Shown here: piece after piece, positions 21,271 to 54,412 of the stretch | Position numbering within the stretch: the first letter of the stretch is position 1 | Layout of the letters: each line of letters starts with the position of its first letter | Source of the DNA: Candidatus Aminicenantales bacterium | GTDB taxonomy: Bacteria; Acidobacteriota; Aminicenantia; Aminicenantales; Saccharicenantaceae | Direction: 5' to 3' | Assembly (NCBI GenBank): GCA_049512315.1 | Contig: JBEKXF010000024.1 | Location: 1 to 54,681, forward strand | DNA: 54,681 nt | Translations under genes and position numbers: made by a program | Notes under the pieces: generated by a model | What the model was told of the DNA's origin: nothing | The model's database searches: none | The model's input: the letters and a program-made list of their open reading frames with translations, nothing else

Positions 21271-21282
21271 GAGGGGGGGCAA

Positions 21283-24126: not shown

Positions 24127-24188
24127 CAAAGGCTTTAAATAATTTTGAATGCTGTTTAGGTTAATAAGCTAAAGAGGGCGGTTCGGTT

Positions 24189-24395: not shown

Positions 24396-24428
24396 ACTCA
24401 CTATGTCTTAAGAGGAGCCAAATCTCAC

Positions 24429-25172: not shown

Positions 25173-25203
25173 GGCTATTCGTCGTCAACCAGGGGGGAGA
25201 AAA

Positions 25204-25524: not shown

Positions 25525-26863
25525 ATACTTTCTGCGCTTTTGGCTGGTTGTTTCTCTAGCCTTTACACTCTTCACACCCCCGATGATCAGCGCTCAAGTT
25601 CTTGTTCAAGATTCCAAGGGAAGCAGCTCTATCTTGTATCATGGGTGTACGATTGGACTTAATTTATCAGAGGCGGCATTTGAATTCGATTATAATAATT
25701 TTTCCAACAGATACGTTCGCGATTTTAGAGGACACCTTGTTTGGGGGTTTCAACTCAGCGCCCAGAACAAGGATGGAGTGGCCAATCTTCTTGATACGGG
25801 GAAATGGACGCCCGAAGCAAAAGGGGTCATAACCCTTGGATATTCTCTCTCCAATTTGAACGCCAAATCGTATGCGGAATTGTCCCGGAGTATTGACTTA
25901 TTAAATCGAGAGATCACTGGCCTAGATAATGGGATGGATGGGAAAACAAAAGCTATGCTTGATGGCTATCTCAAGTCTATAAAGGACAAAAAAGACAGCG
26001 ATAAGCTGATAGCCGAATTGAAATCAATTGTAGGGGAGAAAGACTTTAGAGATCTGGCGGCATCCATACAAAACCTAGCGTCTAAGTTTCCTGAATTTGG
26101 GCGTGGTCTTCTTTCATTTGCCGATGAGATATCCATTAACATAGGGCAAGATTTACAATCTAAAAATGAAAAGCTCATGAAACTCAAGGGTCTTGAAATC
26201 GAACAACGGAACTATAGAGCGACACATAGATATATTATGGCTGTCTTCTATGCGAATATCGGATTGTCTGCGAACTCATTCAAGTACTATAACGAAAACA
26301 GCACGGGAGATTTCAAGAGTAGGTTTGAGGACAAGAATTTCATAGGACCCCTTATCAATATTGGTGCTAATCTACAGTGGGGTGGACGATACATATTTGG
26401 CATCAGCGGCGGACTTAAACGCATAAACAATCTTGAATCTCTCTCTAAAAAGGAATTTACGTTACAAAGTGTGGAAATTCTTGGTTCACAAGTATTGATC
26501 GATGAAAAGAAAATCACGGCTTTTGCTGGCACATATGGCACATTAAACCAATACAACCTAAGTGCCGATATTCTTAGGTTTCATAAACTCGGGATTCAGC
26601 AGGTGATCGTTTCTCATCTTTACCTCAGACACAATATAACCGCTAACACTAATTTGGTTCCCACACAGACTAATGCAGGGCTGGGTGTTTATTACTTTAA
26701 GAACAATGGCGCCTTCCTGGGCGGCTTATATGTAGAAGCTCCTGATATCGCCAACAATATTGAAAAGCATAAGGCTGAGCCCAAGCTTAAGCCGCTTTAT
26801 AATAGAATAAAATTTGGGATTATAGCTAAGATCACGTTTGGCTCACTCTCCTCAATAAATTAA
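25502..26863 (+). CDS. exported protein, possible beta-barrel with inserted helical domain
   Basis: Signal peptide; alternating beta-strand pattern; helical insert. Confidence 0.65.
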   Translation: MIKLDGNRYFLRFWLVVSLAFTLFTPPMISAQVLVQDSKGSSSILYHGCTIGLNLSEAAFEFDYNNFSNRYVRDFRGHLVWGFQLSAQNKDGVANLLDTGKWTPEAKGVITLGYSLSNLNAKSYAELSRSIDLLNREITGLDNGMDGKTKAMLDGYLKSIKDKKDSDKLIAELKSIVGEKDFRDLAASIQNLASKFPEFGRGLLSFADEISINIGQDLQSKNEKLMKLKGLEIEQRNYRATHRYIMAVFYANIGLSANSFKYYNENSTGDFKSRFEDKNFIGPLINIGANLQWGGRYIFGISGGLKRINNLESLSKKEFTLQSVEILGSQVLIDEKKITAFAGTYGTLNQYNLSADILRFHKLGIQQVIVSHLYLRHNITANTNLVPTQTNAGLGVYYFKNNGAFLGGLYVEAPDIANNIEKHKAEPKLKPLYNRIKFGIIAKITFGSLSSIN

Positions 26864-26959
26864 GTATATTCGAATCGAACAGGCTGCTGGCTAGACCGTG
26901 AGGCGTGACCGTAATGGTGGGGAAACAGGTCGTTACCGGTTTTTCTTATCTCGAGCCGG

Positions 26960-27145
26960 GCGTTACCCCCAGGGGACCGAGCCGATGAGGTATTCCCGAG
27001 GATAAGGGTTGCGGTATTCGTAGATGGTTCCTTTTGGCATTCCTGCCCAATCCATGGGACTGTGTCAAAAAAAACACTGAATGGTGGAAAGCAAAGCTCC
27101 GGTCAATTGTCTTACGTAACAAGAAAATTTCCGCTCGGCTCATCC
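26960..27145 (+). pseudogene. vsr: very-short-patch repair endonuclease fragment
   Basis: DEVFPRIRVAVFVDGSFWHSCPIHG, frameshift at the A8 tract, then NTEWWKAKL. Confidence 0.75.
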
Positions 27146-27262
27146 CATTTCAGCCGGCCCACCAGAAAACGAATTGCCTGTCTTTCCAACGGAATAAATT
27201 AGTTTGATCAGGTTGGAGGACACAAGAGAGATGTGCATGGACAATCAAGAAAGGAGGTAGAT

Positions 27263-27898
27263 ATGTTTTTCAAGATTGTGGGTCGATTTATACTCTGCTT
27301 ATTTTATCTTCTGCTGGCGTATTGTTTTGCTTATGCTTCGGTAGTATTATTTACAGCCCCCGCGGTCCCTTGCGATGATTTCATGGCGAAAATTTGCTCG
27401 GGTCTCACCTTAGGCAGAATTTCTGCCTGCGATTGTGCGGCTATCATGTCCGCATACTCTAAAGCTTGGGCAATTTTGTTTGGTCTATTAGCTGCGGCAG
27501 CGGTTCTGGCTTGTATTCACAATAGAAAACCTAAGAAACCATCACCCAGCACACAGAGGATTGTGAAAAGAACAGGAACCCAACCTGAATCATGGTGGCA
27601 TAAGTACAATGGCAAGGAATACAATCCTCTTAATGACGATTACATAATCGCTGGTATAAGCAGTGTCCAATTAGGTAGTCAATTAGGTGATGTAATAGAG
27701 CCTGTCTCGCCTAGGGCGAGAATCGAAACAAATCGCGGGGAGGATCTTGACTGTATCATCTTTCGTGATGGCCATGTAATAAAATTTACAGGCTTCTTAG
27801 GCTTCGAGCAATCACTCTCTCCTGCGGAAGCAGCAAATAAGTTCGGTCAGTACTACTCTAACGCAATGAACTGGTTCAATGGCAACCCATCTCCTTAA
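27263..27898 (+). CDS. membrane protein, two TMs with a Cys-rich loop
   Basis: AGGAGG RBS before ATG 27263. Confidence 0.7.
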   Translation: MFFKIVGRFILCLFYLLLAYCFAYASVVLFTAPAVPCDDFMAKICSGLTLGRISACDCAAIMSAYSKAWAILFGLLAAAAVLACIHNRKPKKPSPSTQRIVKRTGTQPESWWHKYNGKEYNPLNDDYIIAGISSVQLGSQLGDVIEPVSPRARIETNRGEDLDCIIFRDGHVIKFTGFLGFEQSLSPAEAANKFGQYYSNAMNWFNGNPSP

Positions 27899-35116: not shown

Positions 35117-36202
35117 TTAATGGCTTAGTTTTGAGGGAGTTATAGGGATAGGCTCAAGGCAGGCGTCTGAAGGCCTGTCAACTATTTGTCGTGTTGAATC
35201 CAAAATCTCCCCCAGCCGATTGACCGCCAGTCGCATATTCTCAGGCGTGGGATGAGCGTATCTCATCGTCATCTGGATCGAAGAATGACCTAGGATCTTC
35301 GAAACTGTGACTAGGTCAACCCCTGCCTCAACCATCTTTGTTGCGGCCGTATGCCGAAGGTCATGAAGTCGGACGCCACTGATCTCGGCAGCTTTCAGAG
35401 CCGCCGCAAATAAGCGCGTGACCCCCTTGATGTGCGTTTCGGTCTTAGGATTAAAGAAAACGTAGTCAGATCGCCGCTGAAGGCCCTTCAGCGCTTCGAA
35501 CACAGCTGTGTTCATCGGCAGTTTGCGGGATTTGCCGCTTTTCGAATCCCCGATGAGGATGAAGCCTCGAACAAAATCGACGTCCTGCCACCTAAGGCTC
35601 AAAATCTCAGATTTCCTCATCCCTGTGTTCAGGGCAATGATTAGGATCGGCCGGAGCTCAGGACCCGCGCACTCGATGAGACGACTGGCCTCAGCTGGGT
35701 TCAAGATCCGCTCCCGGGTGTTATTTTCTTTGAGCTTTTTAACTTTTGCGGCAGGATTGATCCCGAGCCTACCCCAATCGACTGCCTTATTGAAGAGCGT
35801 TTTAAGACACGCGAGCTCGCGATTGCACGACGCCGGCGAGACTTCAGCCTTTCTGTTGGCCTTGTAACGCTCGATCTTCTCAGCACCGATGGCGCGCAGC
35901 ATATCGCCTTTGAAGAAAGCCTTCAGGTTATTCAATGAGAATTCATCTCGTGTCCAGGACCGTTTGTTCGGCTTTGAATAGAGCTCGAGAAAATCGTCCG
36001 CGAACTTCTCAAAGGACACGTCTTGCACATCGGGCTTCTTGAATCCCCTGGCCACGTCCAGAAGCTCAGCCTTTATTTTGACCAGGGTATTCCGCGCTTG
36101 GTCCTTTGTATACCCGCCGAACTGGCGGACCCTTTTGCCCCTGAACGTGAAATCGAGATTCCACTTCCCGTCGGTGAGCTTAAGATTTCGTTCTTTTTTC
36201 AT
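35117..36202 (-). CDS. tyrosine recombinase / phage-type integrase
   Basis: LNTGMRKSE, SKSGK, HDLRHT, LGHSSIQMTMRYAH (R-K-H-R-H-Y intact). Confidence 0.95.
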   Translation of the reverse strand: MKKERNLKLTDGKWNLDFTFRGKRVRQFGGYTKDQARNTLVKIKAELLDVARGFKKPDVQDVSFEKFADDFLELYSKPNKRSWTRDEFSLNNLKAFFKGDMLRAIGAEKIERYKANRKAEVSPASCNRELACLKTLFNKAVDWGRLGINPAAKVKKLKENNTRERILNPAEASRLIECAGPELRPILIIALNTGMRKSEILSLRWQDVDFVRGFILIGDSKSGKSRKLPMNTAVFEALKGLQRRSDYVFFNPKTETHIKGVTRLFAAALKAAEISGVRLHDLRHTAATKMVEAGVDLVTVSKILGHSSIQMTMRYAHPTPENMRLAVNRLGEILDSTRQIVDRPSDACLEPIPITPSKLSH

Positions 36203-36378
36203 TTGCCCCGCCCTACGAGCGGCTTAACGAATCGCTGAAACTCGGACCGCCGGACCCGCCAGAGACGGCCGCCAGGCTTGAGGGCCCGGAGCTTGCCCGC
36301 CCGAATCCAGCGGACGACCGTCTGCCTCGAGACTTTGACAAGGGAGGAGATGTCTTTAACCGTCAGGAAATCGCTCAT
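36199..36378 (-). CDS. excisionase-like HTH protein
   Basis: FLTVKDIS..VKVSRQTVVRWIRAGKLRA; coupled to the integrase. Confidence 0.85.
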   Translation of the reverse strand: MSDFLTVKDISSLVKVSRQTVVRWIRAGKLRALKPGGRLWRVRRSEFQRFVKPLVGRGK

Positions 36379-36400
36379 TTTCTCCTCTACATAAGCAATG

Positions 36401-36453
36401 TCATATCGTATCATATCTAATCAAATCGTATCATTTTTAAAAAGGCTTGTCAA
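36401..36453 (-). promoter_or_regulatory. sigma70-like promoter (TTGACA-17-TACGAT) overlapped by 10-bp tandem repeats
   Basis: TCATATCGTA TCATATCTAA TCAAATCGTA TCAT; TGTCAA at 36448-36453. Confidence 0.7.
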
Positions 36454-36496
36454 GCCCCTTTTTTTGGCGCAGGAATCCGTGCTATCCTTCCTCGAG

Positions 36497-36679
36497 ATGA
36501 AACGGGAATACCTGAATAAAAAGGACCTTCAAGCCTACTTGCGAATTGGCCCCGCAACGGTGAATCGGCTGATGAAAGATGGGCTGCCGTTTATCAAGCC
36601 GAGGGGGAAAGTTCTATTCCGCCGGGACCTTGTAGACACCTGGCTCGAGGCCCGTATTGTCCGGGCGAAGAAGTCTTAG
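36497..36679 (+). CDS. excisionase-like HTH protein (divergent)
   Basis: YLNKKDLQAYLRIGPATVNRLMKDGLPF..RGKVLFRR. Confidence 0.8.
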   Translation: MKREYLNKKDLQAYLRIGPATVNRLMKDGLPFIKPRGKVLFRRDLVDTWLEARIVRAKKS

Positions 36680-36715
36680 ATCCCGCCATTTAAACCTCGC
36701 ATCCAGGGATGACCT

Positions 36716-36760
36716 CTGGACTATGTATCCAAAGGTCGAAGGTTCTAATCCTCTCAGGCA
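36716..36760 (+). pseudogene. degenerate tRNA-Arg(CCG)-like 3' fragment beside the integrase module
   Basis: CTGGACTATGTATCCAAAGGTCGAAGGTTCTAATCCTCTCAGGCA, compared with 8277-8332. Confidence 0.6.
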
Positions 36761-36822
36761 GGGCACGTTTGACTTCCCGCCTCCACGGCGTTATCCTTAG
36801 GCCGACATAGAAAAGGGGGCCA

Positions 36823-39198
36823 GTGGTGGCCATCAAATGCCCAACCTGCCATTCCGACAATCCTGATACCCTGAAATTCTGCGGGGAGTGCGGAACCCAG
36901 CTCCCTCCTCCCCAGGACCGTCCTCCGGTCATGACAGAAACGCTCCAAACACCCATCCGAGAGCTCACTACGGGCTCCACCTTCGCAGGCCGTTACCAGG
37001 TCATCGAGGAGCTGGGCAAAGGGGGGATGGGGAACATATATAAGGTCATTGATAAAGAAATAAACGCCAAAATAGCTTTGAAGCTAATTAGACCGGATAT
37101 TGCCGCTGATGAAAGCACTATCGCCCGGTTCCGGAGAGAACTCAAAGTTGCCCGAGATATTTCCCACAAGAATATCTGCCGGATGTACGATCTTGGCAAG
37201 GAAGCAGGCGCCTATTATATAACGATGGAATATGTGCCCGGCGAGGATCTAAAGAGCATGATCCGTATGTCGGGGCAACTGAGCGCGGGATTCGTCATCA
37301 ATATAGGAAAGCAGATTTGCGAAGGGCTGGCGGAAGCTCACAGGTTGGGCGTTGTCCACCGCGATTTGAAGCCCGGCAACATCATCATTGACAAGGAAGG
37401 CAATGTTCGAATCATGGATTTCGGCATCGCTCGCTCACTCAAGGCCAAAGCGATCACGGGTGAAGGGATGATCATCGGGACACCTGAGTATATGTCACCG
37501 GAGCAGGTCGAAGGAAAAGAGGCCGACCAACGCTCCGACATTTATTCTCTGGGAGTGATCCTGTATGAAATGGCCACGGGCCGCATTCCTTTTGAGGGAG
37601 ATACTCCTCTAAGCATAGCCGTAAAGCAAAAGACAGAAACTCCGCCAAGTCCGAAGCGGATCAACAACCAAATACCTGAAGATCTGAGCCGGATCATATT
37701 GAAATGCATGGAAAAGGATAGAGGGAAAAGGTATCAAAGTGTCCAGCAACTTCTAATTGAGCTTAATAGGGCTAAAATAGAAAAGCGCGGGCTGGATAAG
37801 GTCGGCGAGGCCGGGACTGCGCCGTCCATCGCCGTCTTGCCCTTCGCTGATCTGAGCCCGGAGAAAGATCAGGACTATTTTTGTGATGGAATAGCCGAAG
37901 AGATCATCAATTCTTTAACAAAAATCGAAAAGTTGAAAGTGGCTTCAGGGTCTTCGGCTTTTCAATTCAAAGGAAAAGGACACGACATTCATGAGATCGG
38001 AGAAAAATTAAAAGTTCAGACCGTGCTCGAAGGGAGCGTACGGAAAGCGGGAAGCAGGCTTCGGATATCGGCTCAGCTGGTTAATGTCGCGGATGGTTAC
38101 CATATTTGGTCCGAGAAATACGACTGTGAAATGAAGGACATTTTTGTCATCCAGGATGAAATAGCTCTGACAATTGCCGACAAACTGAAAGTCAGGCTCT
38201 TGAGCGAAGAAAGAGAGGGACTCGTTAAGAGGCACACGGAAAATATTGAAGCTTATAATCTCTATTTAAAAGGCCGCTATTTCTGGAGCAAGCGGACCCA
38301 AAAGAGCTTTAGAAGAGCGATTGAATTCTTTGAACAGGCCATTGGCGAAGACCCAAGTTTTGGACTCGCCTATTCTGGCTTGGCTGATACGTACAATTTG
38401 CTTGGGTTTTATAGTGTCCTTCCCGGCAAAGAGGCTTTTCCCAAGGCCAAGCAAGCTGCGCTGAAGGCACTTGAGATAGACTCTTCAATCGCTGAAGCAT
38501 ATTCGTCCCTGGCTTTCGCCCAGCTATACTATGATTGGGACTGGGAGGGTGCTCATAAGAATTTCAAGAGTGCTATTGAGTATGGCCCAGGATATGCGAC
38601 AGCTCACCATTGGTATGCCGAATATTTGGTCTTGGTAGGCCAAATGGAGGAAGCCATTGGGGAGGGAAAACAAGCTTTGGAGTTTGATCCCTTCTCGCTG
38701 GTCATAAATACACTGTTGGGATGGCCGTTTCATTATTCAGGTCGATATGATCAGGCGATAGAACGATATCAAAGGACGCTGGAGCTGGACCCGAACTTTA
38801 TGACTCCACATTTCTTCCTGGGGTTGACCTTCGTGGAAAAAGCCATGTATAAGGAAGCCCTAGCGGAATTTAATAAAGCCAAAGTTCTTTTTGGAGATAG
38901 CGCTCTCATGGATGCGGCTATCGGCCATGCCTACGCCAGGTGGGGAAAGACAGATGAAGTCAAGAAAATTCTCGCTGAGCTCGAACAGATATCAAAACAA
39001 AGGCATGTCCCGTTCTATTATTTAGCCGCCATCTATGCGGATATCGGCGATCGAGATCAGGCCTTTCGTTGGCTGGAAAAATGTCTCGAAGAAAGGGATA
39101 TGTGGTTGGCGTTTCTCAGGGTGGACCCCATATGGAGCGACCTGCGACCAGATCCTCGGTTCAGTGAGCTATTAAATAAAATGGGATTGATCAATTGA
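36823..39198 (+). CDS. Ser/Thr protein kinase with zinc ribbon, TolB-like domain and TPRs
   Basis: CPTC..CGEC; LGKGGMG, HRDLKPGN, DFG, GTPEYMSPE; SIAVLPF; TPRs. Confidence 0.95.
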   Translation: MVAIKCPTCHSDNPDTLKFCGECGTQLPPPQDRPPVMTETLQTPIRELTTGSTFAGRYQVIEELGKGGMGNIYKVIDKEINAKIALKLIRPDIAADESTIARFRRELKVARDISHKNICRMYDLGKEAGAYYITMEYVPGEDLKSMIRMSGQLSAGFVINIGKQICEGLAEAHRLGVVHRDLKPGNIIIDKEGNVRIMDFGIARSLKAKAITGEGMIIGTPEYMSPEQVEGKEADQRSDIYSLGVILYEMATGRIPFEGDTPLSIAVKQKTETPPSPKRINNQIPEDLSRIILKCMEKDRGKRYQSVQQLLIELNRAKIEKRGLDKVGEAGTAPSIAVLPFADLSPEKDQDYFCDGIAEEIINSLTKIEKLKVASGSSAFQFKGKGHDIHEIGEKLKVQTVLEGSVRKAGSRLRISAQLVNVADGYHIWSEKYDCEMKDIFVIQDEIALTIADKLKVRLLSEEREGLVKRHTENIEAYNLYLKGRYFWSKRTQKSFRRAIEFFEQAIGEDPSFGLAYSGLADTYNLLGFYSVLPGKEAFPKAKQAALKALEIDSSIAEAYSSLAFAQLYYDWDWEGAHKNFKSAIEYGPGYATAHHWYAEYLVLVGQMEEAIGEGKQALEFDPFSLVINTLLGWPFHYSGRYDQAIERYQRTLELDPNFMTPHFFLGLTFVEKAMYKEALAEFNKAKVLFGDSALMDAAIGHAYARWGKTDEVKKILAELEQISKQRHVPFYYLAAIYADIGDRDQAFRWLEKCLEERDMWLAFLRVDPIWSDLRPDPRFSELLNKMGLIN

Positions 39199-39241
39199 TC
39201 TCAATGCTTCAGGTTCTGGATAGGTTTTCTGGTTTGAGATC

Positions 39242-40213
39242 ATGAAAAGTCGGGGGGAAAATATTTTGGGCTCCGTCCTTGAGGCTATTGGCAGCACTCC
39301 TGTCGTCAGTCTTTCACGCATCACCAAGAACGAGGCGGGAACGATCTTGGCCAAGCTGGAATATCTCAATCCCGGGTTTTCCAAGAAGGACCGGCCTGCT
39401 CTCCAAATTATCGAGGACGCTGAGGCAGAAGGCTTGCTCAAGTCTGGTCAACCTATCGTGGAATTGACGAGCGGCAACATGGGCATCGGATTAGCCATCG
39501 CCTGCTCCATCAAGGGCTACAAGTTTATTGCGGTCATGTCCAAGGGAAATTCCCCCGAGAGGGCTCGTATGATGGCGGCCCTTGGCGCAGAAGTCGTATT
39601 GGTCGACCAACAGCCTGGTTCCCTGCCGGGACAGGTTTCCGGGGGGGACTTGCAACTCGTTGAGCTAGAGACTCAGCGCATTACCAGAGAGAAAAAGGCT
39701 TTCCGGGCGGATCAGTTCAAATTATGGGGAAATTTTCGCTCACACTACTTGCATACGGGACCTGAATTTCTCGAACAATCCAATCATAAGATTGATGCTT
39801 TTTGTGACTTTGTGGGGTCTGGAGGATCTTTTGCCGGCTGCGCTCGTTCGTTTAAAGAGGATAATCCTTCAATTCGGTGCTACGTGGTTGAGCCGGAAGG
39901 GGCGGCCGCTTTGGCGGGCGAACAGGTAACCTACCCTCAGCATCGGATTCAAGGCGGCGGATATTCGATGCTATCGCTGACATTCCTTAAGCCCGAGCAT
40001 ATCGACGGCTATCTCAAAGTTACAGACGAGGAAGCGACGGCCGCGGCGAGGAAATTGGCCAGGGAAGAAGGCATCTTTGCCGGCTTTTCTTCCGGGGCCA
40101 ACCTTGCTGCAGCCATAAAGCTTCTGCGCGGGCCGTGTAAGGGAAAGACCATCGCGATCCTTATCAATGATTCGGGGTTAAAGTATCTAAGCACTGATTT
40201 ATGGCCTTTATAA
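39242..40213 (+). CDS. cysteine synthase family PLP-dependent enzyme
   Basis: KLEYLNPGFSKKDR, TSGNMG, GSGGS, GFSSGAN, DSGLKYLS. Confidence 0.9.
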   Translation: MKSRGENILGSVLEAIGSTPVVSLSRITKNEAGTILAKLEYLNPGFSKKDRPALQIIEDAEAEGLLKSGQPIVELTSGNMGIGLAIACSIKGYKFIAVMSKGNSPERARMMAALGAEVVLVDQQPGSLPGQVSGGDLQLVELETQRITREKKAFRADQFKLWGNFRSHYLHTGPEFLEQSNHKIDAFCDFVGSGGSFAGCARSFKEDNPSIRCYVVEPEGAAALAGEQVTYPQHRIQGGGYSMLSLTFLKPEHIDGYLKVTDEEATAAARKLAREEGIFAGFSSGANLAAAIKLLRGPCKGKTIAILINDSGLKYLSTDLWPL

Positions 40214-40276
40214 TTCATCAGAACCGACTCACCCACCCCTGTTATTCACAGTTTTTGGGTGAGGCTCAGAGGCGGC

Positions 40277-40380
40277 CCCCATCTCATGAGAATGTTCTAG
40301 ACATAATGCGAGTCTTTTAGTTTTTTAGCTTCCAACGAAAAGCGCAAGGAATCTCGGGCCAAGACGACAAGAAATCGACA
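40277..40380 (-). repeat. inverted copy of the arm repeat plus type-B terminus unit
   Basis: Reverse complement TGTCGATTTCTTGTCGTCTTGGCCCGAGATTCCTTGCGCTTTTCGTTGGAAGCTAAAAAACTAAAAGACTCGCATTATGTCTAG. Confidence 0.7.
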
Positions 40381-40681
40381 CCGCCACAGAATCTATCATC
40401 AAGCTCAATCCTCTAACACCTTTAAAACTAAGCCTTTAAAAGTAGCCCTATGAGACCCGCCTTCTGGACTTCATGTCCAGTGGTCAGGACGTCCTTTTGG
40501 ACTGATGGGGGTAGGGTCGAGGGTGGATATCTCGGGCGGCCGGTGCCTATTGGACTATGCGCTCTGGCACGCCAGATCGATCTGTATCCTATCCCCGGGT
40601 CGTGCTGTTTTAATGTAGAGGGGGCGGATTACAGACTGTTCACCGGCCCCCGAGTCGAGGGCCATGAAGGAACGTTTGCGG

Positions 40682-41239
40682 TCATTCATGCCAGGTTTCC
40701 CGAATAGACCGGAGTTCTTCCAGGGCCCGCCCGTAGAGCGGGTAGGCCCGAATTAGAAGCCGGTTCGCCTTTCTCGGGTGTCCGTGTTTCCGTAGCTCTT
40801 TGGCCCGGTCCTCTAAAGTCCCCGCCCGCCGTAGGAGCTCATACGGGCTTCTATGCCTTTGGCTTACTTCGTAGGCTAGCCTATGACAATGACGGCAGGC
40901 GTAATATCCGCCGCTCAGGTAGAGGGCCATAACTCGCCGGCAACAATGCCGACACCGGAAATAAAGCCTACGCCCGCCGTAATAGCAGGGAAAGGCCTCT
41001 ATCCTGTGCTCATAATCTACGGGCTTTTTGTCCAGTAGGTAGTCAAACTTTATGACCCCGCCCCATTCGTCCAAGCGGACCTCGAGGTTAAGGCTCCCGG
41101 TTTCTCGCCCGCCGCTTGAAAACGTAAGCCGCCCTTGCTTATAGCCCAAGTGTAGATAGCCCCAGGTTTTTAAATCGTGTATGGTAAGCCGGGACGTTTC
41201 TTCTACCATATCCCGGCCCCGCCCTGGATAGCGTCCCAT
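40682..41239 (-). CDS. mobile-element-associated zinc-finger protein
   Basis: PCYYGGRRLYFRCRHC...YACRHCHRLAY. Confidence 0.7.
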   Translation of the reverse strand: MGRYPGRGRDMVEETSRLTIHDLKTWGYLHLGYKQGRLTFSSGGRETGSLNLEVRLDEWGGVIKFDYLLDKKPVDYEHRIEAFPCYYGGRRLYFRCRHCCRRVMALYLSGGYYACRHCHRLAYEVSQRHRSPYELLRRAGTLEDRAKELRKHGHPRKANRLLIRAYPLYGRALEELRSIRETWHE

Positions 41240-41985
41240 TTTTAGCGGCTCACTCTCTTAGGGTTCCCGTAATACATAGGTGTTATGCCAGAATAAATGC
41301 CGGCGTTTCTCGGCTATACTTGCGAGCTAAGCCCGGACCTTAGAACGGGTAGCCCGTCCCCGTAGTCGATATCCGGGCCTCGATCGTGTGTTTCACATCA
41401 TGCATCCTGACAATGGTCATTTAAATCCCCGTTATTGAAGTAATCCGGGGTCCGGGTGGCGTGTCCCCCTGACCAGTACGCGACTCGCGCTTGGCCTCTG
41501 CCTCATTTTTTTGTTCATGTCTTCAGCCTTATGATCATGTCCCGAAATCCGGGCGCCCGGCCGGCCGCGAGCTCCTTTACGATCTCGCCCAGGGCCCAAG
41601 CCAGAAGCCGGTGCCGGCGCGAGCAAAAGCGCTGAGGCTTGCCGCTTTTTCGTGCTTGGAACCGCTCTAAACAGACGGGGCAAACGTTAACGTTCATCTG
41701 CGGGCCGATCGTTTCCCGGACTTCTCGGGTAGAGGGCCTTATCCCCGTGGTCAGGGCCGAATGGCTCCTTTTTGCGCGTCCTGCGCGGCCGTAGCGGCCT
41801 TCCCTCAAGTCCTGCGGCGCCCTCACAGGTTCATCCCTTTTCCAGCCGGCAACACGTTCATATTGCCTTCAGCCCCGCCTCCAGGTTCCTGCAGGCCCGG
41901 GGACGACCAAAAAGTTGACGGGCGGGCCGACCTTCGGAGAGGATCGACGGACAGGCGATGCAAAGGACCGGCAAATCTGGCTTTT

Positions 41986-42549
41986 TCATTTCCTGCCGTC
42001 TTTCGCCAGTAGCCGCGCCTCGTACTCAGCCGCCTCGCACCTATGCTTCTCAATCTCCTTGTCAAGCGCCGCTTCTTCGTTCGCGCCTAGTTTCCGGCGG
42101 ATTTCCGGCGATGACGCGGCGGACCTCTCTGTATCATCTAGGGTTTGATTTTCTCTTCCCATTAACTGGGAATCTTGCGGAGATGATAGAGATGGCTCCG
42201 GTACGCCTTTCTGCATAAGCTCCCGTTTTCTTCTGGGGTCGATCTGATAGTCCTTCCACGAGTTGACATAAAGAATTCCATTTTCCAAGCGCGTAAGTTT
42301 GCCGAAAGCGACACATCTTTCGATCGTGCGCGAAATAACGTCTGCGGGAACCCGCAGCATCCCGGCGAGATATTCAACAGGGTATGGCGTTGTCGGGTTC
42401 GCGCGGATGAATCCGTCGTCGGCGGCGGCAAGGCACAGAAAGTCAATGAAGACGCCTCGTTCTGCAGGGTCGAGTTCCCAGCGGGTCGAACCCATGAGCC
42501 ATTTATTGCGCCACAGCGGCAACCAATCGTAGATTTTTCCGCGTCTCAT
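41986..42549 (-). CDS. phage replication-organizer-like protein (N-terminal domain)
   Basis: WLPLW...ERGVFIDFLCLAA...YLAGML...VNSWKDYQ. Confidence 0.65.
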   Translation of the reverse strand: MRRGKIYDWLPLWRNKWLMGSTRWELDPAERGVFIDFLCLAAADDGFIRANPTTPYPVEYLAGMLRVPADVISRTIERCVAFGKLTRLENGILYVNSWKDYQIDPRRKRELMQKGVPEPSLSSPQDSQLMGRENQTLDDTERSAASSPEIRRKLGANEEAALDKEIEKHRCEAAEYEARLLAKDGRK

Positions 42550-42737
42550 GGCCTGTTCGCCTGGTTCTGCTGTTCAAGCCGCCGCTCAAGCTCGCGTAAA
42601 TCGACCCGGACAGCCCGCCCGATATGAACGGCCCCGATCTCGCCGCGAGCGATCATCTTTCTGACGCTCATCGGATGAAGCGAAAGCATTGCTGCTGTGT
42701 CGCCGACTGTGATCCAACGCCGGGTGGGGACGTTCAC
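42546..42737 (-). CDS. excisionase/AlpA-like HTH protein
   Basis: WITVGDTAAMLSLHPMSVRKMIARGEIGAVHIGRAVRV. Confidence 0.8.
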   Translation of the reverse strand: MNVPTRRWITVGDTAAMLSLHPMSVRKMIARGEIGAVHIGRAVRVDLRELERRLEQQNQANRP

Positions 42738-42994
42738 GATTCGTCTCCGGTTCGGTCGCCGAATAGGACTTCCAGGGGGAAGCCGAAGGCGCCGGCGATC
42801 TTCGCCCTGGTCCTCTTCCGTAGCACGTCCGTCCCCGACTCGGCTTTGAATACGGACGAAAGGGAAACCTCGGCGGCGAGGGCTAGCGTACGTTGGCTTA
42901 ACCCTCTACTTTTACGGATGACCCGCAGGATGCATGGGCCTTGACCCCTCCCTGATTTTCTGTCATCCTTAGCCGGGAGTTTGTCGGACCCCAT
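42734..42994 (-). CDS. XRE-family HTH regulator
   Basis: LRVIRKSRGLSQRTLA...VFKAESG...KIAGAF; AGGAGG RBS. Confidence 0.8.
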   Translation of the reverse strand: MGSDKLPAKDDRKSGRGQGPCILRVIRKSRGLSQRTLALAAEVSLSSVFKAESGTDVLRKRTRAKIAGAFGFPLEVLFGDRTGDES

Positions 42995-43061
42995 CTGACT
43001 TACCTCCTGGCCCCATCATGGGTTCGTTTGCCGTGTCAGCGGCTTCGAACCCGGGGCCTTT

Positions 43062-43748
43062 TTATTTTCTCGTAGCGAATGGGCTCAGTTTGCCTGTCAT
43101 CAATTCGATAGAGCTAACGATCCCCATGAGGTCGATAATTAACGTGCTCCCAAAATTAACCGCTGCACGATCCCTCGCTGGCCCGTGGTCCAGCCCTAGC
43201 GAATCAACCGCGCTCGATAGGGTTTTGACCCAGGCTTCCGGCTTTTTGTGTTCTCCGGGGGTAAGAGAAATGTGTATCCCAGCGGCTGTTCCGACGGGGG
43301 TCATGTCTATATAGGGCCCTCTATTGATGAGAAGAACGCAGCCCTCACGGAGATATTTGTCCCGGTGAGCAGCTATGTTTGCCAAGATTGAGGCTTCCTT
43401 AAAGGGCTTATAGAGAAGGTGATCTCCAGCGAGCTCCATTGCGATGGGCTGTCCCAAGATCTCCTTGATCGCTGCCAAGTTAACTCCGAATAATAACAGT
43501 TCTTTAATTACCGCCATCTCTAACAGGTTCTCGGGCGAGTATAGGTTTTTGCCATGTGCCTTGCCCCTAATGGCGGGTTCAAACAATCCCCAGGTTCGAG
43601 ACCAAAGGTAAGCTTCTTCGGGCTTTATTCCAAGGATGCTTTTGACGTCCCCGGATTTGAAGAGCTTTCTATCGTCTATTGCCACTGTTAATAGAAAATA
43701 GCATCTTAAACTGGCTTTGTCAACCTTTTTTTCAAATAGCCCCACCAT
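43062..43748 (-). CDS. MerR-like HTH regulator (true start probably near 43685)
   Basis: FKSGDVKSILGI...YLW...LYSPENLLEMAVIKELL.FGV.L..IK. Confidence 0.6.
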   Translation of the reverse strand: MVGLFEKKVDKASLRCYFLLTVAIDDRKLFKSGDVKSILGIKPEEAYLWSRTWGLFEPAIRGKAHGKNLYSPENLLEMAVIKELLLFGVNLAAIKEILGQPIAMELAGDHLLYKPFKEASILANIAAHRDKYLREGCVLLINRGPYIDMTPVGTAAGIHISLTPGEHKKPEAWVKTLSSAVDSLGLDHGPARDRAAVNFGSTLIIDLMGIVSSIELMTGKLSPFATRK

Positions 43749-44000
43749 CCGGCCAGGGTCCGCCCGAGATCGTCGTCCTGACGCGATCCTGGGCGGCCGG
43801 CTTCACCTCGTCACGATTGTCGACATCAAGGCCTTTAGTCCACGGTACGCTTCTGCATAGCGAGTCCAGGGGGCGAACCCTCAGGCCATTGGCTTTATGT
43901 CCGGACAGGGGGTAATTCTCCTATTGCATCCCCAGCAGGTCAGCAGTAGAATCAGGTCAGCAACGGGCAGCTGAATAAGCTTTGAGGTATAATACGGACG

Positions 44001-44444
44001 ATGAGAGCTCAAGAAATATTTACGATCGGATATGAGGGTCGTGAAATAGACGATTTTATTTCGCATCTAAAGTCCCTAAAAATTACGCGCCTTATTGATG
44101 TAAGAGAGCTTCCGTTATCCAGGAAAAGAGGTTTTTCGAAGTCCCAACTAAAGAGAAGAATGGAATCAGAAAATATTGAATATGTCCATATCAGGTCACT
44201 TGGAAGTCCTTCAAAGATCCGTCATCGACTCAGGGAAGACCATAATTACGATCAATTTTTCTCCGCTTTCCATAATCATTTAGCTGTAAACACAGAGGCG
44301 ATTGCTAGAGCTCATGGATACATCCGAGATGGAACAAATTGTTTAATGTGTTATGAACGTTCTTCGGATAGGTGCCATCGCTCAGCCGTCGCTCAGAAGA
44401 TAAAAGAATATGATGGGAATGGATTGAAAATAGTTCACATTTGA
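44001..44444 (+). CDS. DUF488 family protein
   Basis: IFTIGYEG, LIDVRELPLSRKRGFSK, CLMCYE...CHRS. Confidence 0.9.
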   Translation: MRAQEIFTIGYEGREIDDFISHLKSLKITRLIDVRELPLSRKRGFSKSQLKRRMESENIEYVHIRSLGSPSKIRHRLREDHNYDQFFSAFHNHLAVNTEAIARAHGYIRDGTNCLMCYERSSDRCHRSAVAQKIKEYDGNGLKIVHI

Positions 44445-45229
44445 AGGCCCAAGACTTCATAGCGAAGAAAGTCCTAATTACAGTAAAAGCCTATCCATAC
44501 CCAAGTATCAGCTATGGAGAGACGGTTTGCTGTGCGGGCGTGGACCTCGAAGATTTTAAATGGATCCGTCTCTATCCGATACCTTTCAGAGATCTGGAAG
44601 ATGATAAGAAATTTCGTAAATATAGCATTATCGAAGCCGATTGTGCCAAGTCACCCGGTGATTTAAGACCTGAGAGCTATCGTATAAGATCAGCTTCTAT
44701 CAGAATCCTAGATCACATTGATACCCGAAAGGGATGGGACAAAAGAAAGTCTATTGTGCTGAATCTTCCCGTTAAATCGATGTGTCAAGTAATCGAAGAC
44801 GAAAAAAATGCTAAAGCTTCATTGGGTTTGATAAAGCCTGTTAATATCGCTTTTCATTGTGAAAAGAAGCCGAAATCTGACGCCGGGAAGAGAATGAAAG
44901 CATATGCCCAAAAAAGCCTTTTTGGAAGATTAAAACAACCAATAGAAGAAATCCCATACCAATTTTATTATCACTTCAGATGCGCTTCAGAATTAGCTTG
45001 CCCTTCCCACGATCTATCAATAACCGATTGGGAAATATGTCAATCATTTCGTCGATGGAAATATCGGTATCGTGACGAGCAGGAATTATTGAGAAAGATC
45101 GAAGATAAATGGATGGACATGGTCGATGATACTAAGAAGGATTCATATTTCTATGTTGGAAACCTACATAGGCTTCAAAACATATTCACGGTTCTTGGCA
45201 CATTCTATCCGCCATTAATGAACCCATAG
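44441..45229 (+). CDS. conserved hypothetical partner of DUF488 (possible OB-fold)
   Basis: TTGA overlap; ITVKAYP..S..YGETVCCAG...WIRLYPIPFR...DWE...FYVGN. Confidence 0.75.
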   Translation: MKAQDFIAKKVLITVKAYPYPSISYGETVCCAGVDLEDFKWIRLYPIPFRDLEDDKKFRKYSIIEADCAKSPGDLRPESYRIRSASIRILDHIDTRKGWDKRKSIVLNLPVKSMCQVIEDEKNAKASLGLIKPVNIAFHCEKKPKSDAGKRMKAYAQKSLFGRLKQPIEEIPYQFYYHFRCASELACPSHDLSITDWEICQSFRRWKYRYRDEQELLRKIEDKWMDMVDDTKKDSYFYVGNLHRLQNIFTVLGTFYPPLMNP

Positions 45230-45298
45230 ATTTGGCATCACTTCCCGCCACCGAGAAGCCCCCCCGGATTAAACAAACGGGCGGAGATCAGAACTGAC

Positions 45299-45360
45299 TG
45301 TCAAGATTCGTGACGTGTTGGAGGCTAAAAAGGGCTTAAATCGGCTTAAACGGACTTAAA
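45299..45360 (+). repeat. arm-type att repeat next to the tRNA
   Basis: TGTCAAGATTCGTGACGTGTTGGAGGCTAAAAAGGGCTTAAATCGGCTTAAACGGACTTA. Confidence 0.75.
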
Positions 45361-45426
45361 TCCGATATCCCGTCGATGATCAGGTAAGTTATTGATCTTC
45401 AAGGCTTATATGGGGAGAATTTGAAG

Positions 45427-45501
45427 TGCCCCTGGCCTGACTCGAACAGGCGACACATGGATTAGGAATCCATTGCTCTATCCATACTGAGCTACAGGGG
45501 C
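45427..45501 (-). tRNA. tRNA-Arg(CCT)
   Basis: Full cloverleaf GCCCCTG TA GCTC..GAGC A ATGGA TTCCTAA TCCAT GTGTC GCCTG TTCGAGT CAGGC CAGGGGC A; CCA not encoded. Confidence 0.97.
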
Positions 45502-51110: not shown

Positions 51111-52499
51111 TTATTTCTTGATAGTCGAGATGAACGCCTCGACCTCGGGGATGCCGCCCTGGAAGATGAGGTAGCCGTTCGACGGCTCGCGTTCCGTGAT
51201 CTCGCCGGCGATCGGCGTCAGCATGATCTTCCGGACCTCTTCGACGTCTTTCGTCCGGCCCAGGGCCCAGGCGAGCTTGACGTAGGCGACCTCGGGGAGC
51301 ATGTTCGCCGCCGGGATGACGCCGAGGTCCATCATGTCGCGGCCCGTATCATATACATACATTTGTACATACCCCCAGAGCGTCTGGACCGTCATGTAGA
51401 CGGCGATCCCCTTGTCCCGGCACTTCTTGAGCGAAGGGTAGAGCGGCTTGTTGACGTGGCCCAGGCCCGTCCCGGCGATGACGATCCCCCGGTAGCCGTT
51501 GTCGATGAGGGAATCGATGATGTCGGGCTTCATGTTGGGATAATAGTAGACGATCGAGACCTTCTCCTCGAAGGACGTGTCGATCCTGACCTCGCGGTCC
51601 TTCCGGCGCCTCTTATAATCCTGGCGGAGGGGCGTGATTTTCTCCCGGCTGACCATGGCGATGGGGATGTCGCCGATCGTCCGGAACGTGGACCGGTAGC
51701 TCGAGTGCATTTTCCGGACCCGCGTCCCCCGGTGGAGGAGGCCGTACGTGTCCGACGTCGGGCCGAACATGCAGACCATGACCTCGGCGATGTCGCTCTC
51801 GGCGGCCGTCTTGACGCTGTGCATGAGGTTGAGGGCGGCGTCGGACGAGGGCCGGTCGGAGGAGCGCTGCGACCCGACCATGACGATGGGCACGGGCGGG
51901 TTCTGGACCATGAAGGACAGGATGGCCGCCGTGTGGTGCATGGTGTCGGTGCCGTGGCCGATGACGATGCCCTGGACGCCCTTTTCGATCTCCCGGCCGA
52001 TGGCCTTGGCCGTGGCGATATACTGCTCGGGCCCCATGTTCTCGCTGAAGACGCCGAAGAGCTTCTCGGTCTCGAGGTTGCAGATATCGGCGAGCTCCGG
52101 GACCGAGCCGTAGAGCTCGCCCGGGGTGAAGGCCGGGATGACGGCGCCGGTCCGGTAGTCGAGGCGGCTGGCGATCGTCCCGCCCGTGCCGAGGAGCTTG
52201 ACCGTGGGCCGGCCCGGGTCGTAGGGGAATTCCTTCTCCGGGATCTTGTAGTGGGCTTCCTTGCGGCCCATGATCGTGATGGCCTCGATCGACCGGGCCA
52301 GGAGGCCGATGTTGTAGCCGGAGCGGAGCTTGAGGACGACGTGGAGGGGATCAGCGGTCTCCGAGCGCGGCAGGATGATCCCGGTGTAGGTACCGTGGGC
52401 CGTCTTGATCTCGACGTCGCTCCAGACCAGGGCGCCGAAATTCTTGAGGGTGGCGAGGGCCTCCCCCCGGTAGCCTTTGTACGAGTCGTCGCCGTTCAC
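51111..52499 (-). CDS. gatD: Glu-tRNA(Gln) amidotransferase subunit D
   Basis: N-terminal LKLRSGYNIG domain; GTGGTIASRLDYRTGAV, HGTDT, GSQRSSDRPSSDA, RKMHSS.R, GTGLGH. Confidence 0.93.
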   Translation of the reverse strand: MNGDDSYKGYRGEALATLKNFGALVWSDVEIKTAHGTYTGIILPRSETADPLHVVLKLRSGYNIGLLARSIEAITIMGRKEAHYKIPEKEFPYDPGRPTVKLLGTGGTIASRLDYRTGAVIPAFTPGELYGSVPELADICNLETEKLFGVFSENMGPEQYIATAKAIGREIEKGVQGIVIGHGTDTMHHTAAILSFMVQNPPVPIVMVGSQRSSDRPSSDAALNLMHSVKTAAESDIAEVMVCMFGPTSDTYGLLHRGTRVRKMHSSYRSTFRTIGDIPIAMVSREKITPLRQDYKRRRKDREVRIDTSFEEKVSIVYYYPNMKPDIIDSLIDNGYRGIVIAGTGLGHVNKPLYPSLKKCRDKGIAVYMTVQTLWGYVQMYVYDTGRDMMDLGVIPAANMLPEVAYVKLAWALGRTKDVEEVRKIMLTPIAGEITEREPSNGYLIFQGGIPEVEAFISTIKK

Positions 52500-54412
52500 T
52501 ATCGTTTCTCCTCGAGAATGCCGCGGACCTTCGCCGCCACGGTGGCGCCCTCGACGAGGCCGCGGACCCGGCCCATGACCAGGCCCATCAGGACGTGGCC
52601 CTTTTTCGCGGGGTTGTGGATCTTCATCGAGCCCAGCCGATCGAGCTCGCGTCCGACGAGGGCCTCAATGTCCGCCGCGGTCGGAACGGGAAGCGGGTCG
52701 CCGTCGGCGAAGCCGCCGGACATGGCCATGAGGATCCCCTCCCGGGAGATCGCCCCGTCCTTATATAACTTAAATATTTTCTTTAACTTATCCTCCGTCA
52801 TGGCCGACGTGTCGAACCCCTTTTTCCGGAGCCGCTTGGGGAACTGGACGAGGGCGACCGAGGCCAGGGTGGGATCGATCTTCTGGTCGTTGACGAGACT
52901 CTCGAACAGCCCGGCCAGCCGGGACACGGCCAGCGGCCGGATGACGTCGTCCGGAACGCCGAGAGCGGCATATGTGGCTTCCCGGGCCCAGATCGGGCGC
53001 GGCAGGGAAACCCTGATTTTCTCCAGCCGCTCCTCGGTCACGGTCTTCGGCGGCAGGTCCGTGTCCGGGTACATCCGGTCCGGCCCGGGGAGGATGCGCT
53101 CGAAGCCGTTGGTCCCGTCGTGGAAGGCCTGGCGCGTCTCGGAGGGGATGCCGACGGTTGCCTCCTTGGCCCGGATGGCGATCTCCTGGGCGCCCGTCTT
53201 GGCGTCGTCCTTGGTCCCCCAAACGATGACGAGCGTGTCGTCGCCGCTCGCCTTGAGGGCTTTCCGGACCGCCTGCCATTCGGCGCTCGCCAGCGTCTCG
53301 GACGCGCTGTCCGAGTGGACGATATTGGGCAGGGTCGTCAAACAGGCGACGACCCGGACGCGGTCGGAGATCTCCCGCGAGAAATGGGTGTTGGCCTGGG
53401 TCTGCCAGCTGAGCAGCCCCCGGTAGCCGCGCAGGACGACGCCGTTCGCGACGGCGCCCGCGTCGAGGGCGTTGCGGACGGGTTGGTAGCTCGTCCGCTG
53501 GAGGAGCTTGGTGAGGTCCTCGATATTGGCCTTGAAGGTCTCGGCCGTGAGGCCGCGGCGATGGAGCTCGTCGCGGAGCCTGAGGAGGTTCCACTGGCGC
53601 ATGGCCTCGCTGTAGGTCAGGAGCGGGATCCGCGGGATGCGGGGCACGCCCTTGATCTCGACGCGCGTCCCGCCGCGGACGCTGACGTTGACGTCCTCGC
53701 GGGCGGCCCCGATCCCGGTCCGGACCCGGCCCGTGCTCCGGACGAGGCGGCGGCAGATCTGGGCCACCTCGGCGACCTCCTGGGGCGTCCGCATGTCCGG
53801 TCCGGTCACGGTCTCGATGAGCGGCATGCCCAGGCGGTCGGTGAGATAGACGCGGCGGTGGCCGACGTCGCTCACCTCCCGGCAGGCGTCCTCCTCGAGG
53901 CCGAGCTGGACGATTTGGATCCGCCGGTCCTTGTAGGGGATCCAGCCGTTGACGCCCACGATCGTCGTCCGCTGGAAGCCGGTCGGGATACTCCCGTCGA
54001 GGTACTGCTTGCGGGCGATGTGGAGCTCGTCGACCAGGTTGAGGTTGTAGAGCATGGCGATGCCCAGGGCGATGTCCAGGGCCGTCTCGTCGATCATGAA
54101 CGGCGGCGTGTCGTCCATCTCGTAGGTGCAGACGGTCTCGCGGTTGATCCGGTAGATGATCTCCTTTTTGGTCTTGAACTCCATCAGGGCGGTGCCGTCG
54201 TACTCGCCGAGCTCGGACAGGGTCGGCCGCATGTGGCGGAGGATCTCGGCGTCGTATTTTTCGCTGTACCGGCCGGCCGGGCAGCGGCAGAAGAGCTTCT
54301 TTTCGGTCAGGAGCTGCTGGTGGATCTCGAGGCCCGAGCGGAAGCCGACCTCCTCGTAATCGGCTTCGGTCATCTCCGGGAACGGCTTGAACTGGAAGTC
54401 GTAATCGCTCAT
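52499..54412 (-). CDS. gatE: Glu-tRNA(Gln) amidotransferase subunit E
   Basis: GLEIHQQL, KLFCRC, RPTLSELGE.D..A, DGSIPTGFQRT, LEED, DRLGMPLIE, HSD insert, LPG.DRMYP.TD. Confidence 0.93.
   Translation of the reverse strand: MSDYDFQFKPFPEMTEADYEEVGFRSGLEIHQQLLTEKKLFCRCPAGRYSEKYDAEILRHMRPTLSELGEYDGTALMEFKTKKEIIYRINRETVCTYEMDDTPPFMIDETALDIALGIAMLYNLNLVDELHIARKQYLDGSIPTGFQRTTIVGVNGWIPYKDRRIQIVQLGLEEDACREVSDVGHRRVYLTDRLGMPLIETVTGPDMRTPQEVAEVAQICRRLVRSTGRVRTGIGAAREDVNVSVRGGTRVEIKGVPRIPRIPLLTYSEAMRQWNLLRLRDELHRRGLTAETFKANIEDLTKLLQRTSYQPVRNALDAGAVANGVVLRGYRGLLSWQTQANTHFSREISDRVRVVACLTTLPNIVHSDSASETLASAEWQAVRKALKASGDDTLVIVWGTKDDAKTGAQEIAIRAKEATVGIPSETRQAFHDGTNGFERILPGPDRMYPDTDLPPKTVTEERLEKIRVSLPRPIWAREATYAALGVPDDVIRPLAVSRLAGLFESLVNDQKIDPTLASVALVQFPKRLRKKGFDTSAMTEDKLKKIFKLYKDGAISREGILMAMSGGFADGDPLPVPTAADIEALVGRELDRLGSMKIHNPAKKGHVLMGLVMGRVRGLVEGATVAAKVRGILEEKR

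Follow-up and report, generated by a model that had tools for sequence, protein, structure and literature searches.

A stretch of 54,681 nucleotides from the assembly of a Candidatus Aminicenantales bacterium (GCA_049512315.1, contig JBEKXF010000024.1, positions 1 to 54,681; this whole stretch is referred to here as the window) carries on its minus strand the adjacent genes gatE and gatD (together, gatED), which code for the two subunits of the tRNA-dependent amidotransferase GatDE. We found nothing exceptional about this locus within the large bacterial GatDE clade to which it belongs and which extends over many phyla. As judged from sequence, the identity of the enzyme as GatDE, the integrity of its active sites, the selection acting on its genes, and its phyletic pattern are firmly established. 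The host genome also encodes a glutaminyl-tRNA synthetase (GlnRS), and we infer, at about even chances, that the substrate of GatDE in this setting is Glu-tRNA(Gln) and that its physiological role is that of an accessory converter.

The gatED locus encodes an intact GatDE

The gatE gene (52499..54412, minus strand) encodes a 637-amino-acid (aa) amidotransferase/kinase and tRNA-binding subunit, and gatD (51111..52499, minus strand) encodes a 462-aa asparaginase-type glutaminase subunit with the GatD-specific N-terminal domain. At their junction (52497..52501, minus strand), the coordinates of the open reading frames (ORFs) place base 52499 in both the gatE stop codon and the GTG start codon of gatD, a one-base overlap that suggests translational coupling. 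Both products score above the cutoffs of the NCBIfam equivalog models for their families. GatE reaches 523.3 bits against NF003107 (cutoff, 456) and 459.2 bits against TIGR00134 (cutoff, 319.55), with no GatB model giving more than 132 bits (GatB cutoffs, at least 315); GatD reaches 523.8 bits against NF003217 (cutoff, 310) and 523.5 bits against TIGR02153 (cutoff, 324), its match to the type I asparaginase model (397 bits) falling below its GatD score. The Pfam domains found in GatD are GatD_N (PF18195, 48.2 bits), Asparaginase, and Asparaginase_C. The preliminary description of this DNA, which was made from the sequence alone, had thus correctly recognized full-length, coupled gatE and gatD genes with the GatD N-terminal domain, and the pair is a true GatDE rather than a GatB with a plain asparaginase, as is also borne out by the separation of GatE from GatB in the tree described below.

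GatE consists of a catalytic cradle (residues ~17 to 285 and ~411 to 470), an aspartyl-tRNA synthetase (AspRS)-like insertion (~286 to 410), and a helical domain with a tail (~471 to 637). It aligns over nearly its full length, through the insertion and tail regions, with the archaeal chains 1zq1_C and 2d6f_C. An AlphaFold model based on 34 sequences (predicted local distance difference test [pLDDT] score, 89.7; predicted template modeling score, 0.85) is confident in both the insertion and the helical tail, and Foldseek ranks 1zq1_C and 2d6f as its best fold matches, with GatB chains next. The GatE insertion claimed in the preliminary description is accordingly modeled as a confidently folded alpha/beta domain (pLDDT, 93 to 97), but it gives no match to the Pfam GAD model at an E value of 10 or less, and the GatB_Yqey tail is matched only in part (32 bits). 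A Heimdall GatE, in contrast, is matched by GAD with 42 bits and over the whole GatB_Yqey tail with 88 bits.

The stretches TGGT, HGTDT, and RKMH of GatD are conserved in near-full-length alignment with 1zq1_A and 2d6f_A, and they probably hold the threonine nucleophile and the Thr-Lys-Asp triad of GatD. A 2008 review gives this nucleophile and triad as the catalytic residues of GatD, and His15, Glu157, and Glu184 as the Mg2+ ligands of the Methanothermobacter thermautotrophicus GatE, mutants of which are inactive (PMC2330236). In the alignment, H31, E173, and E200 of the window's GatE stand opposite these three ligands. Comparison with orthologs from three relatives gave intact frames and ratios of nonsynonymous to synonymous substitution rates (dN/dS) of ~0.12 for gatD and 0.25 to 0.40 for gatE, values that are to be read with the caveat that dS is probably underestimated given a GC content at third codon positions (GC3) of 0.93; by this sequence-derived measure, both genes are under purifying selection.

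The closest known systems are the archaeal GatDE enzymes of Pyrococcus abyssi (1ZQ1) and M. thermautotrophicus (2D6F, with tRNA-Gln), with which the window's enzyme shares its subunits, domain order, and catalytic residues and which are its best matches by sequence (E values of 3e-100 and 8e-127) and by Foldseek (E value, 9.5e-50; TM score, 0.81). It differs from them in that its GatE is only ~34 to 37% identical to theirs and belongs to a separate, strongly supported clade, in that Pfam misses the GAD insertion and picks up the YqeY tail only in part, in that the tRNA-Gln of the host has a U1-A72 rather than an A1-U72 pair, and in having a GlnRS alongside. With the bacterial GatCAB it shares the reaction chemistry, and GatE and GatB are paralogs; in GatCAB, however, the glutaminase is the amidase GatA with GatC instead of the asparaginase-like GatD, and GatB is without the insertion domain.

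A GatDE clade spanning bacterial phyla

Within Aminicenantia, the class of the window, we surveyed 151 genomes, counting GatE as present at a best E value of 1e-35 or less, GatB above its model cutoff, and GlnRS at an E value of 1e-100 or less. GatE is present in 96 of these genomes (in 72 above the cutoff) and GatB in 42; three have both (G041, G111, and G136), and 16 have neither. GatE and GatB nearly exclude each other in the class. The closest GatE homologs carry the source names Candidatus Aminicenantales or Aminicenantes, same-genus orthologs are 88% (GatE) and 96% (GatD) identical to the window's proteins, and in all 12 loci of the class that were compared, gatD is the next gene after gatE, on the same strand. 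Given the 96 genomes with GatE and this constant gene order, the contig is not chimeric, a possibility that the preliminary description had raised.

A whole-library search returned 3,153 relatives, with a tier at 45 to 57% identity, one member of which is named candidate division CSSED10-310, followed by a gap down to ~31 to 41%, where a sequence at 41% is named Heimdallarchaeota. When two peptide patterns derived from the bacterial tier were then run against a single genome for each species, at least 600 stretches were obtained, at least 597 of which were confirmed; the labels and locus comparisons for other phyla rest on the best 80 of these at least 597. The labels among these 80 include Phycisphaerae and other Planctomycetota, Ignavibacteriota, Chlorobiota, Bacteroidota, Rhodothermota, Neomarinimicrobiota, Cloacimonadota, Aegiribacteria, WOR-3, Calditrichota, Fibrobacterota, Myxococcota, and Aminicenantes, so that those of the bacterial GatDE clade cover more than 10 phyla; certain of the names given to automated bins, such as Hyphomicrobiales and Eubacteriales, seem untrustworthy. 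In the majority of the 80 loci, gatD comes after gatE. Across these phyla, the proteins are 68 to 87% (GatD) and 48 to 70% (GatE) identical to those of the window, the range for GatD over all GatDE bacteria compared being 68 to 96%. Only gatE and gatD themselves are common to 15 diverse loci, and a tRNA gene lies near gatE in just 1 of 57 loci, which leaves no conserved neighbor or dedicated tRNA among them.

We then placed the window's GatE in a tree of 83 rows, rooted on six Aminicenantia GatB sequences and further comprising 35 of the 80 other-phylum loci, selected to cover their diversity (including L038 and L097, which have Thermoplasmatota labels), the CSSED10-310 representative, 14 named archaeal sequences, and 26 unnamed representatives. 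The tree was inferred under LG+G4 by a short search, with the Shimodaira-Hasegawa-like approximate likelihood ratio test as its only support measure, and 23 of its 83 rows deviate in amino acid composition. The 77 GatE rows are split from the six GatB rows with a support of 100. The bacteria-labeled rows form one group (support, 87) within a 38-row clade (support, 100; stem, 0.34) that also contains three Thermoplasmatota-labeled sequences. Phyla are interleaved inside the bacterial group: Aminicenantia occur at two or more positions, and the window's GatE belongs to a 14-row clade (support, 99) together with rows from Chlorobiota, Ignavibacteriota, Bacteroidota, Rhodothermota, and Myxococcota. 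This interleaving points to exchange among bacteria and, together with the size and multiphylum makeup of the clade, suggests that the immediate source of the locus was probably another bacterium.

In the LG+G4 tree, the 38-row clade is sister to Asgard (Heimdall) GatE with a support of 94. A nested position of the bacterial clade among Asgard-related archaea was nevertheless not upheld: when the 39 conventional archaeal GatE sequences were constrained to group together, the log likelihood was better (-72909.2) than that of the free fast search (-72922.1), and the approximately unbiased (AU) test kept both trees (P values of 0.647 and 0.353, respectively). The bacterial-type clade is thus distinct, and either nested in archaea or sister to all archaeal GatE, with the AU test rejecting neither. 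Of the ancient inter-domain transfer proposed in the preliminary description, a lineage-specific event does not stand, as the locus is one member of a large bacterial clade; an archaeal origin of that clade as a whole is possible on the basis of these trees.

Two of the Thermoplasmatota-labeled loci, L038 (genome G172) and L097 (G173), have a GatE closest to the bacterial clade and gatD on the opposite strand; at L038, glnA comes after gatE, and a GlnRS scoring 743 bits is encoded elsewhere in G172, a bin of 1.4 Mb. Reviews state that archaea lack GlnRS (PMC9499178). The flanking genes are not diagnostic and do not confirm the archaeal nature of these contigs.

Gln-tRNA machinery and the candidate role of GatDE

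A profile search of the host genome (3.55 Mb, 77 contigs; completeness, 96.6%; contamination, 1.3%) found neither GatA nor GatB above cutoff: the only match to the GatB models is GatE itself, and the best match to the GatA model is a generic amidase (237 bits). Asparaginyl-tRNA synthetase (AsnRS) is present (483 bits), as are a bacterial AspRS and two AsnB-family genes above the TIGR01536 cutoff. Two Gln-synt_C matches indicate glutamine synthetase and dispose of the idea that a tRNA route to glutamine is needed for want of that enzyme. Both tRNA-Gln genes have U1-A72 and G73, features shared by tRNA-Asn of the genome, and by our own reading the D-loop of tRNA-Gln has 7 nucleotides versus 9 in tRNA-Glu. 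According to the 2008 review, a short D-loop of tRNA-Gln is the feature by which GatDE and GatCAB reject tRNA-Glu, and archaeal GatDE reads the A1-U72 pair of tRNA-Gln, which tells it from tRNA-Asn (PMC2330236). That pair, which the host does not have, is a feature of the archaeal enzyme-tRNA combination. The archaeal-type host setting, with a nondiscriminating glutamyl-tRNA synthetase (GluRS) as partner and no GlnRS, does not occur in the genome either. These sequence comparisons support the unusual Gln-tRNA arrangement suggested by the preliminary description, with GatCAB absent and GlnRS present.

The GluRS of the genome is a short form (427 aa) that is missing ~45 residues of the connective region relative to the Thermotoga maritima GluRS. 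Its gene, gltX, lies outside the window, next to glnS and on the same strand as it (contig C11 of the host genome, G000, positions 84679-87616; loci L003 and L002). Within the order, short GluRS (at least 63% identity) is confined to genomes that have GlnRS, where it stands beside glnS, and it has no match at an E value of 1e-80 or less in the GatCAB-only genus of the same family. The gltX-glnS pair looks like a linked unit that replaced an ancestral GluRS and GatCAB.

Across the class, GlnRS is present in 99 of the 151 genomes: it accompanies GatE in 86 of 96 cases but is found in only 1 of the 39 GatB-only genomes (G077), as well as in 12 of the 16 with neither. AsnRS is above cutoff in 142 of the 151 genomes, across all of these states. 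The tRNA-Gln(UUG) of the host is 92 to 93% identical to that of G055 (GatCAB only) and of G087 and G141 (GlnRS only), and it always has U1-A72 and G73. Ten GatE genomes gave no GlnRS match, and four of them were reexamined (G075, G078, G083, and G137). G075 and G078 were rejected as cases of GatDE without GlnRS when no GluRS was found in them either, which suggests that the adjacent gltX-glnS region is probably unassembled; G153 and G160 were likewise rejected, and G083 has a fragmented glnS. G137, an 89% complete metagenome-assembled genome (MAG), has two GluRS-like genes and no GlnRS, and no amidotransferase other than GatDE was found in it; its tRNA-Gln, of which the 3' half can be seen, has A72 and G73.

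For the other phyla, we examined 33 GatDE genomes that were chosen for phylum diversity and come without quality figures. GlnRS is above cutoff in 27 of them and GatB in 12, with a partial GatB in G177. GlnRS occurs without GatB in 16 and GatB without GlnRS in two, one of which is a complete Phycisphaerales chromosome. Four have neither: two of these are uninformative, having no detectable GluRS, one is archaeal labeled, and the fourth (G156, a MAG) has two GluRS-like genes with GatA, GatB, and GlnRS not found. The Phycisphaerales chromosome (G152, locus L037) holds GatA, GatB, GatDE, and AsnRS and no GlnRS, a 173-aa ORF matching just the C-terminal part of the GlnRS model. The tRNA-Gln query used did not recover tRNA-Gln from G156, G152, G172, or G173. 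AsnRS matches are found in all 33 genomes (31 above cutoff), on which ground we rejected an archaeal-style division of labor in which GatCAB is kept only in the absence of AsnRS.

On the basis of these observations, the most likely job of GatDE in the window's genome would be to turn Glu-tRNA(Gln) into Gln-tRNA(Gln), the tRNA being of the bacterial type with U1-A72. GatE would bind the mischarged tRNA and phosphorylate its side-chain carboxylate, and GatD would free ammonia from glutamine or asparagine, which GatE would use to amidate the activated residue. With GlnRS making Gln-tRNA(Gln) directly, GatDE would be an accessory enzyme that provides a second, glutamine-independent or error-clearing route and not an essential one. 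The two genomes with GatDE as the sole amidotransferase found, G137 and G156, argue that bacterial GatDE is capable of its canonical function on a U1-A72 tRNA-Gln. In having two GluRS-like genes, both resemble the Helicobacter pylori-type system, which combines GluRS1 and GluRS2 with an amidotransferase (PMC2777447 and PMC2978374), as does the GatCAB-only G055, whose two GluRS genes (L119 and L122) have Arg in one and Gly in the other at the position of Arg358 of the Thermus thermophilus GluRS and thus resemble a GluRS1/GluRS2 pair. The window's genome, unlike that type, has a single short, Arg-bearing GluRS beside glnS. A further parallel comes from Thermus, Deinococcus, and Bdellovibrio, in which the role of GatCAB is tRNA-dependent asparagine synthesis. 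These bacteria keep GatCAB beside GlnRS and AsnRS (PMC4206432); the window's genome is like them in keeping an amidotransferase despite direct synthetases and unlike them in having AsnB-family genes and in that the amidotransferase kept is GatDE.

Several observations weigh against an accessory conversion of Glu-tRNA(Gln). The GlnRS of the genome is full length (730.9 bits) and lies directly downstream of its only GluRS, and its presence means that GatDE is not needed for Gln-tRNA there. The 12 genomes with GlnRS and neither GatE nor GatB, including the single-contig G087 and G141, which have no amidotransferase at all, show that GatDE is dispensable once GlnRS is present. Moreover, the GluRS is predicted from its sequence to be discriminating: it has Arg at residue 314, which corresponds in the alignment to Arg358 of the T. 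thermophilus GluRS. The change of Arg358 to Gln makes the T. thermophilus enzyme nondiscriminating (PMC2978374), and Lys occupies this position in the T. maritima GluRS2, the enzyme of the glutamine transamidosome entry 3AL0. The Arg is kept in all 21 short GluRS orthologs (4 from amidotransferase-free and 17 from GatDE genomes), and a single one of 429 GluRS columns separates the two groups of genomes. If the GluRS is discriminating as predicted, the canonical substrate Glu-tRNA(Gln) should be scarce. In other phyla, GatE, GatB, and GlnRS are found together in 10 of the 33 genomes, or 11 with the partial GatB, and such coexistence fits poorly with simple redundancy. Of the two genomes that favor the canonical job, both are MAGs, and the two GluRS-like genes of G137 (L120 and L123) both appear to keep the Arg, although their alignment is less certain. 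Finally, the catalytic core of GatE is tightly held, and the tRNA-reading modules, its most diverged parts, drift. Identity to the window's GatE is 0.94 for the N-terminal cradle, 0.73 for the insertion, 0.66 for the helical domain, and 0.49 to 0.50 for the tail among close Aminicenantes-like relatives, and 0.65, 0.36, 0.25, and 0.22, respectively, among other bacterial representatives; a Heimdall control set of similar overall divergence has 0.81 for the cradle and 0.61 for the tail, a narrower spread than that of the Aminicenantes set. This pattern fits an altered or relaxed tRNA specificity without proving it.

The drift of the insertion and tail is also what might be expected if bacterial GatDE had shifted to Asp-tRNA(Asn), making asparagine on the tRNA and replacing an Asp-amidotransferase role lost with GatCAB. 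The near absence of class genomes with both GatE and GatCAB (3 of 151) would agree with such a replacement, as would the likeness of the host tRNA-Asn and tRNA-Gln in U1-A72 and G73. With AsnRS and two AsnB-family genes, however, no tRNA route to asparagine is needed in this genome, and AsnRS is also prevalent in the rest of the class and in the GatDE genomes of other phyla, 10 of which (11 with the partial gene) have kept GatB as well. Furthermore, the insertion is kept and predicted to fold, and, according to the modeling in the 2008 review, it would collide with a class II AspRS if the two were in complex (PMC2330236). We therefore consider a shift to Asp-tRNA(Asn) unlikely. About equally unlikely is a role on another substrate altogether, be it another aminoacyl-tRNA, a tRNA-like RNA, or amide transfer outside decoding, or else a regulatory or moonlighting function. 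It would account for the coexistence of GatDE, GatCAB, and GlnRS in other phyla and for a tail that drifts faster relative to the cradle in the Aminicenantes-like set than in the Heimdall set, and neither canonical substrate has a predicted source in the genome, a nondiscriminating AspRS not having been sought. Yet the retention of all canonical catalytic residues and all domains speaks against it, and the 15 loci compared contain no conserved neighbor pointing to another pathway, nor is a tRNA gene commonly found near gatE.

The classical archaeal arrangement, in which GatDE would be the essential and sole route to Gln-tRNA(Gln), draws on the lack of GatA and GatB above cutoff in a nearly complete genome, but it is contradicted by a GlnRS well above cutoff beside gltX and by the predicted discrimination of the GluRS; we regard it as very improbable. 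Still less credible is an artifact or relic, with the contig chimeric, the bin contaminated, or the genes recently imported and decaying; the variation in GC content along the window (0.41 to 0.68) and the number of contigs might be thought to point to this. The gatED end of the window has the same composition as its core neighbors, with a GC content of 0.67 and 0.64 and a GC3 of 0.93 in each of the two genes (ftsE GC3, 0.94; recO GC3, 0.88; genome GC, 0.608), in keeping with the host-like, high-GC codon usage noted in the preliminary description. The low contamination of the assembly, the orthologs throughout the class and in the same genus, and the intact, constrained frames also speak against it. 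Accessory conversion of Glu-tRNA(Gln) thus stays the reading that we prefer, at the even chances given above.

Genomic setting and wider meaning

The neighbors of gatED are fpg, tRNA-Arg(CCU), ftsE, ftsX, a RodZ-like protein, and recO, which agrees with the recO, ftsEX, and rodZ of the preliminary description; the RodZ-like protein scores below cutoff and matches in its N-terminal region only. An ORF for an outer-membrane beta-barrel protein lies directly downstream of gatD, and elsewhere the window encodes extracytoplasmic function sigma factors and a TonB C-terminal domain. The gene neighborhood is that of a diderm bacterium. Farther away, a segment with a GC content of ~0.41 (8898-13812) contains a GmrSD-type restriction endonuclease (8898-11156) and a 731-aa ORF without Pfam match (11617-13812) and is probably a defense island. 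A second low-GC stretch (18126-27898; GC, 0.43 to 0.49) codes for an endonuclease/exonuclease/phosphatase-family protein (18126-19106), a radical S-adenosylmethionine/SPASM protein (22603-23682), and several ORFs without Pfam match. The region from 35117 to 45501, with a tyrosine recombinase (35117-36202, minus strand), a Ser/Thr kinase with tetratricopeptide repeats (36823-39198), a cysteine synthase-like gene (39242-40213), a weak match to a phage replisome-organizer N-terminal domain (41986-42549), and a MerR-family ORF (43062-43748), is possibly an element integrated beside the tRNA-Arg(CCU) gene (45426-45501). As to expression of the locus, one sediment metatranscriptome contained 5% of the sampled words and yielded 142 short contigs, which are not evidence of expression; 107 of the 142 are only 90 to 95% identical to the locus, so that they come from relatives, and DNA carryover is possible.

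Reviews from 2008 and 2022 describe GatDE as confined to archaea and make this the basis of scenarios for early Gln-tRNA formation (PMC2330236 and PMC9499178). The large bacterial GatDE clade contradicts this archaea-only view. Annotation pipelines already name bacterial GatDE members; in the open literature, judged by titles and the beginnings of abstracts and with subscription journals outside this scope, we found no paper on GatDE in Aminicenantes or other bacterial carrier taxa. Aminicenantia offers a natural experiment in which GatCAB only, GlnRS with GatDE, and GlnRS alone occur within one class. As the tRNA-Gln is nearly identical across the genomes compared, the purpose of GatDE beside GlnRS is directly testable there. 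More broadly, and as a tentative proposal that we consider rather unlikely, bacterial GatDE may represent not an archaeal pathway moved into bacteria but an ancient line in its own right, perhaps the sister group of all archaeal GatE, which works on U1-A72 tRNAs and which, where GlnRS and a discriminating GluRS are present, has a role other than bulk supply of Gln-tRNA, such as conversion of another mischarged tRNA, for example Asp-tRNA(Asn), error clearing, or a function under nitrogen stress. If true, this would overturn the textbook status of GatDE as an archaeal signature and would reopen the question of which amidotransferases were present in the last common ancestor.

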